DNA from: Minisyncoccota bacterium
GTDB taxonomy: Bacteria > Patescibacteriota > Minisyncoccia > Phycocordibacterales > UBA9973
Direction of reading: 5' to 3'
NCBI GenBank assembly: GCA_041664605.1
Contig: JBAYKO010000001.1
Coordinates: forward strand, 83,586 to 147,585
DNA: 64,000 nt
This document shows positions 3,168 through 55,382 of the stretch, in pieces. The notes under the pieces are model-generated. The model ran no database searches. It saw only the letters and a list, made by a program, of their open reading frames with translations, and was not told the DNA's origin. The number at the start of each line of letters is the position of its first letter. The stretch's first letter is position 1. The position numbers were made by a program, and so were the translations under genes.

Positions 3168-3177
3168 GAATTTTTAA

Positions 3178-3218
3178 AAGGTGCGACCTTAAAAGTTTTA
3201 CACCCAAGGTCGTTCCTT
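3178..3218 (+). repeat. 41-nt hairpin element copy 2, 10 nt after dnaJ stop
   Basis: 41/41 identical to copy 1. Confidence 0.7.
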
Positions 3219-3261
3219 AGAAAAATTTCTTTAAAATTATCAAATTTGTTAAAATATGGAC

Positions 3262-3398
3262 ATGTGAATCCTGTAGTAGATTTTCAAATTATTACAGGGT
3301 AATGATGAGATTTTAGGAACAATAAGTCGTAAAAAATATTAATCATAATTTAAAGTTTTAAATTCGTTTTTTAAAACAATTTGAAAATTCACTACGGG
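3262..3398 (+). repeat. Divergent member (F) of the start-codon-abutting inverted-repeat element family, flush against tyrS ATG
   Basis: Distal end ATGTGAATCCTGTAGTAGATTTT and proximal end AAAATTCACTACGGG form an imperfect 15-nt inverted repeat. The tyrS ATG follows immediately (GGG-ATG, as in the core family). Confidence 0.5.
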
Positions 3399-4649
3399 AT
3401 GAAATTATTATCAGAAGAATTGCAAAAAAGAGGTTTTATTTATCAGTTTTCAGAGGAAAAATTAGAAGATATAACAGATAAAGAAAAAAGAACTCTGTAT
3501 GTGGGTATTGATCCTACTGCTGATTCTCTGCACGTTGGTCATCTTGTTGCACTTTTAATGTTGCGACATTTTCAAAGCTACGGACATAAAATTATTATTA
3601 TTGTTGGTGGTGCAACTGGAATGATTGGTGACCCATCAGGGAAAAGCAAAGAAAGAAATTTACTTGATAATAAAACTCTTAAGAAAAATGTAAAAGGAAT
3701 AAAAGCTCAAGTAAAGAGTATTCTTGGAAATTCAAATTTTACAATTACAAATAACAATGATTGGTTTAAAAAGATCAAGGTTTTAGATTTTCTTCGAGAT
3801 ACAGGAAAACACTTTACAATCAACGCTTTAATTAAGAGAGATTCTATTGAAAAAAGAATGACAGGGGATGAGGGGATTTCTTATACAGAATTTAGTTATG
3901 TGCTTTTGCAATCTTACGACTTCTTACATTTATTTAAAAAATATGGGTGCAATCTTCAGATTGGTGGATCTGATCAATGGGGGAATATTGTTTCGGGGAT
4001 AGATTTAATTAGAAAAGTTGAAGATAAAAAGGTTTATGGAATAACTTGTCCTTTAATAATTAATGAAGCCACGGGGGAGAAATTTGGAAAATCAGAAGGT
4101 GGAAATGTTTGGTTGTCGGCTGAGAGAACTTCGTCTTTTGCTTTCTTTCAATTCTGGCTAAACGTTGATGACAAGAGCGCAGTAAAATATCTAAAAATTT
4201 ATAGTCCGCTTTCTATCGAAAAAATAAATGGCATAGAAAATGATTTTATAAAAAATCCTGAAAATAGATTAGCTCAGAAATCTTTGGCTTATGAAATGAC
4301 TAAGCTTATTCATGGAGAACAATCAGCAATTGCTTCAAAAAAAGTCTCAGAAATATTATTTGAAAACAAGGAAATAGAAAATTTATCTCAAGAAGAAAAG
4401 AAACTTTTGACTTCTGAAATCAAAAGCGTTTCAGCTAAAATTGGAGATGGAATTAAAATTGCTGACGCTTTAGTTATGGCAGAACTTACTCAATCAAAAG
4501 GGGAAGCAGGGAGACTCTTGAAAGAAGGCGGAGTTTCTGTAAATAATGAAAAAGTAGACGAAGAATACATTATAACTTCCAAAGATTCAAAAAACGGAAT
4601 AATTTTGATAAAAAAAGGAAAGAAAAACTTTGCCTGTCTTTTGGTGTAA
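3399..4649 (+). CDS. tyrS: Tyrosyl-tRNA synthetase (class I), with C-terminal S4-like domain
   Basis: HIGH motif variant (SLHVGHL), KMSKS variant (KFGKSEG), GGSDQWGNI. The ORF-track start at 3381 is a TTG inside element F. The ATG at 3399 matches the start-codon placement of the other family copies. Confidence 0.9.
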   Translation: MKLLSEELQKRGFIYQFSEEKLEDITDKEKRTLYVGIDPTADSLHVGHLVALLMLRHFQSYGHKIIIIVGGATGMIGDPSGKSKERNLLDNKTLKKNVKGIKAQVKSILGNSNFTITNNNDWFKKIKVLDFLRDTGKHFTINALIKRDSIEKRMTGDEGISYTEFSYVLLQSYDFLHLFKKYGCNLQIGGSDQWGNIVSGIDLIRKVEDKKVYGITCPLIINEATGEKFGKSEGGNVWLSAERTSSFAFFQFWLNVDDKSAVKYLKIYSPLSIEKINGIENDFIKNPENRLAQKSLAYEMTKLIHGEQSAIASKKVSEILFENKEIENLSQEEKKLLTSEIKSVSAKIGDGIKIADALVMAELTQSKGEAGRLLKEGGVSVNNEKVDEEYIITSKDSKNGIILIKKGKKNFACLLV

Positions 4650-5594: not shown

Positions 5595-6920
5595 AATTTT
5601 AGTAATTCTAGGTCCAGATGGAGTATCTTCTATATTGTAACCAGCAGTAGCACTAATTTGGCGAAATCTATCAGCTTCTTCCCAGTTTTTTTCTTTACGA
5701 ACTATTTCTCTTGCTTCTACTAATTTTAAAATATCTTCTGGAATTTCTAAAGTTTCTTTTTCCAACAATTTAAAACCAAAAATTTGATCAATTATTTCGA
5801 TTGTTTTATATTTTCCCTCAGCATTCTCATCTCGTAAAAGTTCCCATAGTGAAGCCAATGCTTTGGGGGTGTTTAAATCTGAATTCATAGCTTCTTTAAA
5901 TTTGTCTAAATATTTTTCATTTATTTTTCCATCATTTTTTAAATCTTTAGAAATATTTTTTAGTCTGTTGTAGGAGTTTTGAGCATCGTCTAATGAATTT
6001 TTTGAAAAATCTGTTGGTTTCCTGTAGTGTGCCGATGTAACAAAATATCTTATAATTTCACCAGAATAACTTAGAAGTATGTCTCTTATTGTTTTAAAGT
6101 TTCCAAGGCTTTTACTCATTTTTATTCCATCGACATTTACCATTCCATTGTGAATCCAGAAATTTGCCATTTTTGCACCCCAAGCAGATTCACTTTGGGC
6201 AATCTCATCTTCATGGTGGGGAAAGATCAAATCTTGTCCACCTCCGTGAATGTCAAAAGGAATTCCCAGAATACTTTCAGACATAGCAGAACATTCTATA
6301 TGCCAACCTGGTCTACCTTTGCCAAATGGGGTATCCCATTCTGGTTCATTTGGTTTTGAAAATTTCCAAAGTACAAAATCTTCCTTATTCTTTTTTTCTC
6401 TATTTTCTAGAACCCGCGCACCAGATTTTAAATTTTCAATTTTTTGGTGGGACAGTTTTCCATATTCTTTGTATTTTGAAATATCAAAGTAAATTCCATC
6501 GTCTTTTATTGTATAAGCGTATTCTTTTTCAATAAGTAAAGTTACAAGATTTATCATTTGTTTGATATATTCTGTAGCTTTTGGTTCTACATCAGGTTTT
6601 TCTACTCCAATTTTCTCATAATCTTCAATATGAGCTTTTGTATTTTTTTCTGTTAAATCTTTTGTAGTCTCATGTAATTCGCGTGCTTTATCAATTATTT
6701 TGTCGTCAATATCAGTAATATTTGAAGCAAACATTACATCATAGCCTAGAAATCTTAAATATTTTCTTAAAATATCAAAAGTAATTTTCTGTCTTGCATG
6801 GCCTAAGTGGGGGACATCGTTTACTGTTGGTCCACAAACATACATTCTAACAGCACCTTCTTTTATGGGTTTAAATTCTTCTTCTTTTTTTGTGAGAGTG
6901 TTATAGAGTTTTAGAGACAT
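5592..6920 (-). CDS. cysS: Cysteinyl-tRNA synthetase
   Basis: HIGH (PHLGHAR), KMSKS (KMSKSLGN), CGPTVND zinc-site region. Confidence 0.93.
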   Translation of the reverse strand: MSLKLYNTLTKKEEEFKPIKEGAVRMYVCGPTVNDVPHLGHARQKITFDILRKYLRFLGYDVMFASNITDIDDKIIDKARELHETTKDLTEKNTKAHIEDYEKIGVEKPDVEPKATEYIKQMINLVTLLIEKEYAYTIKDDGIYFDISKYKEYGKLSHQKIENLKSGARVLENREKKNKEDFVLWKFSKPNEPEWDTPFGKGRPGWHIECSAMSESILGIPFDIHGGGQDLIFPHHEDEIAQSESAWGAKMANFWIHNGMVNVDGIKMSKSLGNFKTIRDILLSYSGEIIRYFVTSAHYRKPTDFSKNSLDDAQNSYNRLKNISKDLKNDGKINEKYLDKFKEAMNSDLNTPKALASLWELLRDENAEGKYKTIEIIDQIFGFKLLEKETLEIPEDILKLVEAREIVRKEKNWEEADRFRQISATAGYNIEDTPSGPRITKI

Positions 6921-24388: not shown

Positions 24389-24509
24389 ATATATAAGAAC
24401 TTAATTTAATTTTCTATTGTAGAGTCTATCACATATATAATATTTTGTCAACAACTTTAAAAATAAAAATATCCTTTCAAATAAAGCGATTTTTGGTATA
24501 ATTTTTTAC

Positions 24510-24550
24510 AAGGAACGATCTTGAGTGTAAAACTTTTAAGGTCGCACCTT
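24510..24550 (-). repeat. 41-nt hairpin element copy 3 (inverted orientation), 22 nt upstream of ftsW ATG
   Basis: Reverse complement matches copies 1/2 at 38/41 positions (CACTCAAGATCG vs CACCCAAGGTCG). Confidence 0.65.
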
Positions 24551-24572
24551 TCAAAAAATTTTACAAATTGAA

Positions 24573-35763: not shown

Positions 35764-35838
35764 AAATTTATTTTTTATAATCCCAGCACTAAAATTTTAA
35801 TTGTTCTAATAATTTTTTATTCTTATTCATCTATATAT

Positions 35839-36534
35839 CTACTTTTTATCTCTACTCAGATTATTTAAAAATTTAGTACGGGATAAATATTTTTTAATTA
35901 TTTGATCACCCCTCAAGTTTACCCAAGAATATTTCGCGTCTCCAGGATAAGCCCCGCCATGTTCTCTTCTTGTCTGTCTTTCTTTAGCCGAAGCAAAATC
36001 ATGCGCTGAATCATAAATCATCCCCTTTTTCATTAAATCTCTTTCATGTTGTTCATGAACTAATGTAAAAAATTTATCTTTCTCTCCTAAGCAGTTGTCC
36101 AACCAAATCTCATTTTGGGGAATATATTTATAAACATAATGATGGCCACCCATAACAAATTGTGGGTCTATATATTGTCTAATAATTGAACCTTCAACAT
36201 AACAAACTTTTAAACCTTCTATATTTTTTGTTCTTATATAAAAATTTGGTATTAGTCCTTTTTTACATAAAACTTTTTTTAAAAATTTACGGACATCTTT
36301 TACATTTTTACAACTCTTGGGAACTTTAGTATTTTTTAGTTTTATGAAAAAATCTAATTCTTCTTTAAAACAATAATCAAACCAAAATTTATTTTGAGGA
36401 ATATAAAATTTTGGATCATAAAAATCAGCTGGAGAATTTGTATATTCGTAAAAAACAGAAAAATCGTCATCTAGTGTTTGACGAATTAAAGCCCCATCCA
36501 CAAAGACTATATTTTCAATAGGTTTTTTCTGCAT
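35839..36534 (-). CDS. Hypothetical protein with internal tandem duplication (two about 60-aa repeats, YIPQNxxWxDxC motif)
   Basis: VFVDGALIRQTLD...FYIPQNKFWFDYC and CYVEGSIIRQYID...KYIPQNEIWLDNC align. His-rich HEQHERD segment. Confidence 0.5.
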   Translation of the reverse strand: MQKKPIENIVFVDGALIRQTLDDDFSVFYEYTNSPADFYDPKFYIPQNKFWFDYCFKEELDFFIKLKNTKVPKSCKNVKDVRKFLKKVLCKKGLIPNFYIRTKNIEGLKVCYVEGSIIRQYIDPQFVMGGHHYVYKYIPQNEIWLDNCLGEKDKFFTLVHEQHERDLMKKGMIYDSAHDFASAKERQTRREHGGAYPGDAKYSWVNLRGDQIIKKYLSRTKFLNNLSRDKK

Positions 36535-54158: not shown

Positions 54159-55193
54159 TTAATTAATAAATTTCCCCGCCCTTACCACATGATCAACTAG
54201 TGTGTGAGTATACCCCATTTCGTTATCATACCAAGCTAAAACTTTTACTAAATTTCCACCAACTACTCTTGTTAATCCCAAATCAGCAATGGAACCATGT
54301 GGGTTTCCTAAAATATCACTTGAAACGAGTTCTTCTTCGGTCACATCAAAAATACCTTGCCAACGAGGATCGCTTGCTGCCTTTTTTAAAATCTCATTCA
54401 CTTCTTCTTTGGTAGTATTTCTTTTTGAAATAAAAGTAACATCAACAATAGATCCAGAAACAATCGGCACCCTAATTGAAATTCCATCAAAAAGACCTTC
54501 TAGTTGCGGAATAGCTTTGGTTATTGATATCGCTGCTCCTGTTGAAGTGGGAACAATATTATGTCCAGCTGATCTTCCTTCTCTCCAATTGTTTTTATTT
54601 GGTGCATCTACTGTTGGCTGATTGATAGTGTTTGCATGAGTTGTATTTAATAATGCTTTTTCAATACCTAATGCTTCATCTAAAATAGCAATGAGTGGAC
54701 TCCCAGCATTTGTTGTACAAGAAGCATTTGAAGTAATAATACATCTTTCTAATTCTTTTTCATTAATTCCCATTAAAACTGTAGCCCCAGGAATATCACT
54801 GGAAGGTTCATCTTTCATCGGACCAGTAACAACAACTTTTTTAGCTCCACAATCTAAATGAAATTTTGATTTTTCGAAAGAAGTGAAAAGTCCTGTGCTT
54901 TCAACCACTACATCGATATTTAAATCTTTCCACGGTAATTTTGTAGTGTCTTTTTCTGATAAAAATTTTATAGTTTTTCCTTCAATAATTAAATCTGTCC
55001 CAACTACTTCAATTTTTTTATCCCATTTTCCATAAACAGTATCGTGATGAAGTAAGTAAGCCATATTTGATATGTCACCCAAATCATTTGCTGCCACTAT
55101 TTCAATCTCGGGACGCTCCCAGGCGATTTTCAAAAAAGCTCTCCCAACTCTTCCAAAACCATTTATTGCTACACGTGTTGTTTTATTTGCCAT
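54159..55193 (-). CDS. gap: Glyceraldehyde-3-phosphate dehydrogenase (type I)
   Basis: NGFGRVGR NAD-binding, catalytic ASCTTN. Confidence 0.93.
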   Translation of the reverse strand: MANKTTRVAINGFGRVGRAFLKIAWERPEIEIVAANDLGDISNMAYLLHHDTVYGKWDKKIEVVGTDLIIEGKTIKFLSEKDTTKLPWKDLNIDVVVESTGLFTSFEKSKFHLDCGAKKVVVTGPMKDEPSSDIPGATVLMGINEKELERCIITSNASCTTNAGSPLIAILDEALGIEKALLNTTHANTINQPTVDAPNKNNWREGRSAGHNIVPTSTGAAISITKAIPQLEGLFDGISIRVPIVSGSIVDVTFISKRNTTKEEVNEILKKAASDPRWQGIFDVTEEELVSSDILGNPHGSIADLGLTRVVGGNLVKVLAWYDNEMGYTHTLVDHVVRAGKFIN

Positions 55194-55305
55194 AATTTCT
55201 TGTCCTGCGAAGCCTTGGCGAAGCAGGATGATTAATTTTTTACTTTTCAGCCATAGGCTGATCCGCCTTGGGCGGAATAACTTTTAACTTACTTGTATTA
55301 TATCA

Positions 55306-55382
55306 CCCTGTAGTGAATTTTGGAAAAATACAAAGTATAAAATCTGATTAAAATCAGATTATTTCCAAAATCTACTACGGGG
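55306..55382 (-). repeat. Divergent short member (G) of the inverted-repeat element family (F-type ends), 110 nt upstream of gap
   Basis: CCCTGTAGTGAATTTTGG ... CCAAAATCTACTACGGGG inverted repeat, similar to copy F ends. Internal palindrome AATCTGATT/AATCAGATT. Does not abut a start codon. Confidence 0.45.

Follow-up and report, generated by a model that had tools for sequence, protein, structure and literature searches.

The stretch analysed here, 64,000 nucleotides (nt) of contig JBAYKO010000001.1 from a Minisyncoccota bacterium (the window; 30% G+C), carries a hairpin-ended element, designated F, fused to the start codon of tyrS, and a shorter element of the same kind, designated G, upstream of a gap-like gene. 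The tyrS gene (3399..4649, plus strand) encodes a tyrosine--tRNA ligase of 416 amino acids (aa); a database entry is 100% identical with the same start, and the product contains the Pfam domains PF00579 and PF22421. The identical protein belongs to a metagenome-assembled genome (MAG) of Candidatus Paceibacterota, within the candidate phyla radiation (CPR, or Patescibacteria). For orthologous tyrS leaders there was no close relative for comparison, the nearest other tyrosyl-tRNA synthetase being 51% identical.

The initial annotation had drawn a unit of about 137 nt before tyrS, its distal end, ATGTGAATCCTGTAGTAGATTTT, beginning at position 3262 and its proximal end, AAAATTCACTACGGG, stopping at 3398, directly before ATG. 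Both ends are present at these positions, and G occupies exactly 55306-55382, but the element proper is 131 nt long (3269..3399, plus strand). The first seven bases, ATGTGAA (3262..3268), are host flank and comprise a distal ATG, likely the transcript start, with TGA directly after it, and the left copy (3265-3268) of an exact 4-bp direct repeat, TGAA. The right copy (3400..3403) coincides with bases 2-5 of tyrS. The layout is ATG-TGAA-TCCTGTAGTAGATTTTCAAATT...AATTTGAAAATTCACTACGGGA-TGAA-ATT, with pairing ends of 22 nt (5' arm, 3269-3290; 3' arm, 3378-3399) that make the element T-ended (TCCT...GGGA), and the final base of F (3399) is the A of the tyrS ATG. The duplication shows that the target of F was the TGAA at bases 2-5 of a tyrS gene, where the terminal A of the element together with the duplicated TG rebuilt the ATG. 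The rebuilt empty site, ...GGACATG[TGAA]ATTATTA (GGACATGTGAAATTATTATC), contains the in-frame start GTG AAA TTA. A GGG-ATG junction had been described as common to F and to a second group of copies in the window, the core family. The junction is seen at both; it is no motif as such, because the element end GGGA and the target TGAA sum to GGG-ATG.

F contains no open reading frame (ORF); as in G and in a third copy, H, its reading frames are only runs of 2-22 codons that start in the host flank. Its predicted fold has a free energy of -34.1 kcal/mol (z = -4.1). At 3247..3255 on the plus strand, 6 nt 5' of the distal ATG, lies an extended -10-like box, TGTTAAAAT, which we read from the sequence as the putative tyrS promoter. 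A promoter inside F that drives tyrS was weakened as a candidate by a consensus scan, which found no site pointing at the ATG.

G (55306..55382, minus strand) is 77 nt long, C-ended and Y-shaped, with a 21-bp stem and the hairpins AATCTGATT..AATCAGATT and ATAC..GTAT; folded as DNA, it has a z score of -8.0. On the minus strand it reads CCCCGTAGTAGATTTTGG...CCAAAATTCACTACAGGG and is oriented like F relative to its downstream gene. The polarity of the two elements is the same (5' arm ..TAGTAGA.., 3' arm ..TTCACTA..), and the 3' arm that G shows on the plus strand is exactly complementary to the 5' arm of F. G is directly followed at its 3' end by TGATATAAT (55297..55305, minus strand), a candidate extended -10 box of gap by consensus match (10/12 positions), and TTTCCA within G (55321-55326) forms a -35-like hexamer 18 nt 5' of this box. 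The downstream ORF call (54159..55193, minus strand; 344 aa) is glyceraldehyde-3-phosphate dehydrogenase-like, and its N-terminus, MANKTTRVAINGFGRVGR, marks it as a putative gap gene.

Spread, insertion and anatomy of the family

A one-arm consensus with up to 2 mismatches gave 7 matches in the window against 1.4 expected, a number reached in 0 of 100 shuffles, and a two-arm pattern gave 2 matches against 0.00 expected. Bacterial and archaeal genomes, one for each species, were then scanned for the pattern GTAGTRRATTTT-N41-101-AAAATYYACTAC. At least 116 loci were obtained, with approximately 4 expected by chance according to our own estimate, and nearly all were from Patescibacteria of many classes. 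Hosts among the matches listed were Nomura-, Yanofsky-, Wolfe-, Zambryski-, Kaiser-, Wildermuth-, Moran- and Gottesmanbacteria as well as Paceibacterota, and several MAGs among these matches contained 3-10 copies each. The remaining loci were a repeat in Pirellulaceae (GTAGTGGATTTTGCTAAAAATCC) and a lone Campylobacter match, both of which were rejected as family members. Viral contigs yielded no match to the two-arm pattern. As for the Pirellulaceae sequences, one MAG (loci L045, L057, L066, L075, L077, L109 and L113) has its own dispersed repeat with arms GTAGTGGATTTTGCTAAAAATCC...GGATTTTTAGCAAAATCCACTAC, which matched the search pattern and differs in its flanks and inner stems.

For the anatomy of the family, 109 non-identical copies were oriented by an asymmetric dinucleotide (AG..TC). 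Exact direct repeats of 3-7 bp, mostly 4-5 bp, were found outside the ends of 92 of these copies, compared with approximately 18 when partners were shuffled. The repeat was 4 bp long in 54 copies, 5 bp in 27, 3 bp in 9 and 7 bp in 1, and was absent in 17; the corresponding values for shuffled partners were 4.0, 0.9, 3.1, 0.02 and 91. Agreement of the flanks beyond the repeats was no higher than background. Given that agreement ends just past the repeats, they represent genuine duplications of the target, 4-5 bp long and with a loose preference for Y..R. A 6-bp duplication that includes the T/A ends was rejected, with positions -9/+4 and -4/+9 agreeing in only 31-32% of copies.

Copies have also inserted into one another. 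Nested copies with a duplication of their own were observed at L030 and L018 (F/G type within F/G type), at L091 (core type within G type, TTTA) and at L149 (G type within a full-length unit of the kind described below). Neighbouring copies have a single 4-nt spacer in common at L003, L010 and L054, and at L067 (2211-2522) four identical 69-nt G-type copies stand in tandem with a period of 81 nt, their junctions consisting of the element ends and one 4-nt spacer (CAAG in the oriented frame). Genes flanking the copies were diverse (139 clusters among 154 neighbours). The duplications, nesting, tandem array and diverse neighbours bear out the initial proposal that F and G belong to one family of dispersed inverted-repeat elements resembling miniature inverted-repeat transposable elements (MITEs), and we are highly confident that they are mobile elements of this family.

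Each copy is bounded by YCCN-GTAGTRRATTTT and 4-5 further pairing bases. The inverted repeat reaches -4/+4 as YCCN...NGGR, with an outermost pair of C/G in 91 copies and T/A in 14. The stem of approximately 21 bp has conserved G.U and A.C mismatches in its middle, on either strand. Its inner positions 1-4 are Watson-Crick pairs in 100-105 of 108 copies, compared with 40-59 for shuffled partners, while the sequence there varies (GGCA, CGGC, GACA, CAAA, CGAT and others). From this covariation, stem pairing is evidently under selection. The copies fall into two length classes, 65-72 nt (G-like) and 118-125 nt (F-like). Copies of the shorter form (21-bp stem, two inner hairpins) are the most frequent (66/108); their interior has a mean z of -2.9, being more stable than shuffles on both strands, and folds into the two hairpins of the Y in 49 of the 66 copies. 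The interior of the long class is AT-rich, with a z of about 0 and no more structure than shuffles. The suggestion that G is a decayed or internally deleted copy is thus not upheld: it folds as a typical copy of the commonest form.

CPR bacteria are thought to carry little mobile DNA. At several copies per genome, the family accounts for a sizeable and unrecognised share of their scant non-coding DNA, and its copies will mislead the annotation of gene starts and promoters. A CPR-wide hairpin-ended family appears to be without description in the literature searched, that is, open-access papers and preprints; nor did this literature describe MITEs from CPR bacteria, leaderless genes in these bacteria, or GIY-YIG elements that combine inverted repeats with duplications.

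Target sites and start codons

Rebuilding of the empty sites revealed three recurrent targets: TTGA/CA (-35), TGnTA/TAAT (extended -10), and A/TGAA, A/TGGA or TATG (start codon). Among 78 sites with good flanks, overlap was seen with TTGAC[AT] at 16, with TGnTAnnnT at 13 and with the start ATG of an ORF at 12; at control positions 25-150 nt away, the same three signals were counted 0.5, 2.6 and 2.4 times. Ends of tRNA genes are targeted as well (L090, L032/L078). This pattern of sites may result either from targeting or from the survival of harmless insertions. The position equivalent to TTTCCA of G reads TTGCCA or ATGCCA in many relatives, and with a -35-like hexamer in the arm, insertion exactly at TGnTA keeps a usable promoter geometry.

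The F-like subfamily comprises 18 distinct copies: F itself, 7 copies in two other genomes, to which F has a mean identity of 83%, and 10 obtained from metagenome contigs with F-specific arms. Without exception they are T-ended (TCCN...NGGA), are bordered by TGAA, TGGA or TGA and lie in sense orientation, their final A providing the first base of the ATG at which an ORF begins. The ORFs represent 16 different genes, including tyrS, topA, rpiB, fusA, hpf, atp genes and genes for HIT, histidine-kinase-like, P-type ATPase, aldolase and leucyl-tRNA-synthetase-like proteins. A -10-like box, often TGnTATAAT, is situated 4-8 nt before the upstream copy of the ATG in 12 of the 18.

In the window, starts were not preceded by an enriched Shine-Dalgarno signal, and 14 of 57 genes had a strict -10-like hexamer 5-9 nt upstream of the ATG, with a peak at 6 nt. 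As the -10 box of tyrS lies 6 nt before the start, tyrS was presumably leaderless, and we infer the same for the target genes of F-like copies in general, with insertion at +2 to +5 of the transcript. These observations suggest that leaderless mRNAs are common in the source organism, and the placement at start codons hints that leaderless expression is common in uncultured CPR organisms. Such placement also offers a natural setting in which to test the tolerance of leaderless genes to a structured leader of 130 nt.

GIY-YIG units, mobilisation and rival explanations

Family arms that lacked a partner were mostly chance matches or decayed copies, and were set aside with the exception of one in L078. 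This arm led to a 317-nt unit, TATG-CCCGGTAGTGAATTTTCAAC...GTTGAAAATCTACTACCGGG-TATG, that encloses a 91-aa GIY-YIG ORF. As a separate observation on this locus (3500-3840), the unit occupies a TATG that lies three codons short of the stop in an RNase Y-like gene, and its end, CCCGGTAG, re-encodes Ala-Arg-stop, matching the displaced GCGAGATAA. Searches with tblastn yielded five more GIY-YIG ORFs in family loci. At L050, for which the tblastn flanks were available, the ORF lies within variant arms with a TTATG duplication; two others are located in hairpin-armed insertions of rRNA genes (L024, 1668-1916, 16S; L103, 4658-4894, 23S), and two adjoin G-type copies.

A profile search with the nuclease returned 2,891 cluster representatives at E <= 1e-10. 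In all 10 clusters inspected in full (L078, P0122, P0127, P0151, P0126, P0141, P0190, P0230, P0234 and P0196), the gene lies between family arms; P0166 has both arms without a duplication. The units of arms plus nuclease are 314-320 nt long and contain one gene of 88-98 aa, of the Slx1/UPF0213 type of GIY-YIG proteins. In 8 aligned units, the 5' context GATT-ATG is conserved and the stop codon falls in or just before the 3' arm. Six units, including P0166, are T-ended and adjoin host start codons in the sense direction, as exemplified by P0151 (TATAAT-aaaaat-A[TGAA]T...A[TGAA]) and P0141 (TGCTATACT-atatgg-A[TGGA]), and three of these six have an ATGA in which the stop of the nuclease gene and the start of the host gene overlap. 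The F-like copies, strictly sense, thereby have the orientation in which a full-length unit would be expressed from the host promoter. The proteins are 61-90% identical across units with invariant catalytic residues, and the arms differ. Given that the arms have diverged while the position of the gene and the protein have been kept, arms and nuclease appear to have descended together for a long time, rather than the gene having been captured. We therefore regard the GIY-YIG unit as the probable full-length form of the family, which would tie the unexplained GIY-YIG insertions of CPR rRNA genes to a family of mobile elements that is general in its distribution.

The GIY-YIG domain (Pfam PF01541, E = 1e-14 to 1e-18) is a bare catalytic domain without a DNA-binding domain. 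The nearest structures to its predicted model (pLDDT 85) are UPF0213 protein BH0048, Slx1 and the plant Slx1 homologue At-HIGLE, ahead of I-TevI. According to the titles of entries 6SEH and 7CQ4, Slx1 cleaves branched DNA. Whether the nuclease is the mobilising enzyme we judge to be an evenly balanced question. If it moves the elements, transposition would take place without a DDE, HUH, serine or tyrosine enzyme, by an element of approximately 0.3 kb.

On the whole, the observations are likely to be best explained by F and G belonging, as MITE-like members without an ORF, to a family of hairpin-ended mobile elements that spans the Patescibacteria and is moved by the nuclease. The nuclease, acting in trans, would recognise extruded hairpin ends and make a staggered cut in the target, so that ORF-less copies such as F and G could be moved by enzyme supplied from elsewhere, and only insertions whose duplication rebuilds a -35 box, a -10 box or a start codon would persist in dense genomes. 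At gap, G would have inserted at the extended -10 box, with its arm now in the -35 position. At tyrS, F would now be transcribed from the old promoter as a 137-nt leader, whose 21-bp stem would pair the 5' end of the leader with the bases just before the ATG. Two routes past this stem can be envisaged. Ribosomes starting at the 5'-terminal AUG might open it, by way of a start-stop in F and of 12-22 codons covering the 5' arm in other copies; or RNase III might cut it, as it does in rRNA intervening sequences. The rnc gene is kept in at least 90% of CPR genomes (PMC12641178). This step at the RNA level, whether leader, stem opening or cutting, is a tentative part of the proposal. Translational bypassing of the kind in T4 gene 60, in which take-off would occur at GGG-TAA in the hairpin and landing at the GGG that precedes the ATG, was rejected: GG[GA]-stop is missing in 3 of 8 F-like copies (L042, L074 and L048), and the landing codon is different in L023.

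More speculatively still, the 314-320-nt units might be the smallest autonomous transposable elements and move by a new mechanism, in which a 90-aa Slx1-like nuclease acts on its own hairpins and makes 4-5-nt staggered cuts. Together with their ORF-less derivatives (F, G and the core family), they would survive in streamlined CPR genomes by landing on contact points of RNA polymerase (-35, extended -10, and +2 to +5 of leaderless genes), where the duplication rebuilds the signal, and the 21-bp stem would be neutralised via RNase III or ribosomes that initiate at the 5' end.

Several points weigh against this account. No empty allele was found, and movement is deduced from the duplications; the flanks of G are without a clean target duplication (TAGTA versus TGATA); and tblastn detected no GIY-YIG gene in the 64-kb window. 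In a global alignment, F and the nuclease gene match at their ends only, with no convincing likeness of the interior, and an origin of the F interior as a remnant of that gene was rejected on this ground. We know of no strand-transfer or joining activity of a lone GIY-YIG nuclease, and host functions would be needed. Finally, the 12-nt arm hardly varies from one CPR class to another and F-like copies lie strictly in sense orientation, features more suggestive of functional constraint than of a purely selfish repeat.

The alternative that fares best, although we consider it unlikely, is that F and G are MITEs of a DDE transposon, for example of the IS1380/piggyBac lineage, and that the GIY-YIG gene is a passenger. 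Elements of this lineage have CC termini and 4-5 bp duplications (4 bp for piggyBac), which the 4-5 bp duplications and CC(C) termini of the present family fit, and the core arm, CCCGTTAGAAAT, resembles the piggyBac end, CCCTAGAAAG. IS1380 is used as the prokaryotic outgroup of piggyBac (PMC10813416). The targets of F and G are not TTAA, however, and within 0.9 Mb of loci, comprising the DNA near copies, no pair of arms 300-3500 nt apart surrounded a transposase-sized ORF, no unpaired arm lay beside one, and no DDE transposase was found with F/G ends. In addition, the fixed position of the nuclease gene relative to diverged arms points to co-descent rather than to a passenger, and each of the many covarying arm variants would need a matching transposase.

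Less probable again is the notion that the elements are chiefly modules in the service of the host (RNase III stems, insulators against read-through or portable -35 boxes) with mobility secondary. The stem length of 21 bp and the arms are conserved across CPR classes, F-like copies are strict in orientation and position, hexamers resembling TTTCCA or TTGCCA are present in the arms 18 nt upstream of -10 boxes, and arms enclose tRNA genes at L114 and L112, all of which would suit such a role; relatives also reside in rRNA genes in the manner of intervening sequences (PMC11270868). Duplications, nesting and tandem reinsertion nevertheless record insertion events rather than evolution in place, and both the sites and the neighbouring genes are diverse. 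A role as host modules is compatible with the mobile-family explanation and not opposed to it.

A regulatory leader RNA specific to tyrS, such as a T-box or another riboswitch, is very improbable. F does have a strong fold and a location between the promoter-like box and the start of tyrS, and tyrS is T-box-controlled in Firmicutes. An F-like unit of approximately 120 nt nevertheless precedes 16 unrelated genes (topA, rpiB, HIT, fusA, hpf, aldolase and atp among them), F has a target duplication, and the interior of the long class has a z of about 0. Rfam searches of the window at the gathering score, and of the regions of F and G with E-value cut-offs of 10 and of 1, gave only tRNAs and generic hairpins (best E > 0.02). 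An origin of the F and G ends as inverted repeats that arose by chance in AT-rich DNA, which the initial annotation had allowed should no further copies exist, has a negligible probability: short inverted repeats abound in the window (3321 pairs), but the two-arm pattern has an expectation of 0.00 in shuffles and the genome scan provided more than 100 copies elsewhere with matching architecture.

Among known systems, the Correia elements of Neisseria (NEMIS/CREE), like other bacterial MITEs, are similar in their length of 70-150 nt, terminal inverted repeats, target duplication and numerous copies dispersed close to gene starts. They fold into long hairpins when transcribed, and their ends can supply promoter hexamers. 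The F/G family differs in its duplication of 4-5 bp at a loose YN(N)NR rather than TA, in ends that are unrelated in detail, in a distribution over a superphylum rather than one genus, in its sites (-35, extended -10 and leaderless start codons) and in a candidate autonomous partner that is a 90-aa GIY-YIG unit instead of a DDE insertion sequence. Repetitive extragenic palindromic (REP) sequences and REPINs with their RAYT gene are likewise short ORF-less hairpin repeats, with one small gene flanked by the same repeats and a conserved GTAG at the foot of the hairpin. The F/G arms flank a GIY-YIG rather than an HUH/Y1 gene, and the elements are Y-shaped and have target duplications, which REPINs are not known to carry. 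With homing endonucleases, whether free-standing or borne by introns (I-TevI, Seg proteins), the family has in common the GIY-YIG domain and the context of a selfish gene; its nuclease, in contrast, has a total length of 88-98 aa, and its many varied sites carry duplications, unlike homing by repair. The stem of approximately 21 bp in F and G and the relatives in 16S and 23S rRNA genes recall the intervening sequences that RNase III excises from 23S rRNA. Integron attC sites were rejected as a comparison: the core arms GTTAGAA...TTCTAAC are, on both strands, the reverse of R'' (RYYYAAC)...R' (GTTRRRY), and the arms of F and G are without attC boxes.

According to a 2024 survey, insertions in CPR rRNA genes that carry GIY-YIG ORFs belong to neither group I nor group II introns and seem not to be homing-like (PMC11270868); a term search of the same source returned no mention of inverted repeats or hairpins. 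F and G differ from these insertions in lying at a start codon and a promoter rather than in rRNA.

Core copies and other repeats

The window contains five copies of the core family (CCCGTTAGAAAT...). C1 (10501..10640, minus strand), before recR, has the duplication TGAG/TGAA and is G-ended, which results in the GTG start of recR. C2 (14797..14936, plus strand) is T-ended with the duplication TGAG/TGAG, and its final base doubles as the A of the ATG downstream. C3 (31889..32010, minus strand), before rplI, is flanked by TGAA/TGAA, and its arms GAAGT/ACTTC are compensatory relative to GAAAT/ATTTC. C4 (35660..35758, minus strand) is without a duplication, and C5 (42316..42436, minus strand) has TGAG/TGAG. 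Insertion at a start codon with TGAG or TGAA is a property of four of the five (C1, C2, C3 and C5).

F and G had been regarded as a divergent subfamily of this core element. The two groups do share the terminal YCCNGT..AG and a T-ended variant at start codons, as well as 4-bp duplications, present in the four window copies (TGAG/TGAA) and in 8 of 14 core-type copies elsewhere, and their sites are shared or nested at L054 and L091. The kinship is plausible but unproven, resting as it does on termini, duplication length, site type and nesting, without a shared full-length element.

Element H, the third F/G-type copy (35782..35883, minus strand), is 102 nt long, reads TCCCGTACTAAATTTT...AAAATTTTAGTGCTGGG and lies directly upstream of C4. 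The arms of the 16S rRNA insertion at L024 (CCCAGCATC.../...GGTGCTGGG) resemble one arm of H (CCCAGCAC...). The leader of gap (55194-55296, minus strand) contains two G+C-rich hairpins, CCGCCCAAGGCGG and CCTGCTTCGCCAAGGCTTCGCAGG, which resemble the inner hairpins of G-type copies in other genomes.

With regard to the tRNA genes between arms, core-type arms CCCCGTTAGAAAT...ATTTCTAACGGGG surround an intact tRNA-Val(CAC) gene at L114 (4820-5030). The unit is situated in the anticodon-loop region of an outer tRNA-like gene with a D-loop insert of approximately 40 nt, and ARAGORN calls the inner tRNA only. At L112 (approximately 6398-6510), related arms (CCGTAAGAAAGCGG / CCGCTTTTCTACGG) flank a tRNA-Ser gene.

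Another repeat of 58-73 nt (GGTGCGACCTTAAAAGTTTTACACCCAAGGTCGTTCC) is present in the window at 1037-1099 and 3171-3228 and, inverted, at 24500-24557, with copies that are 84-90% identical. It is located directly 3' of stop codons, for example right behind dnaJ and just 5' of the tyrS promoter, and looks like a hairpin module of 3' ends.

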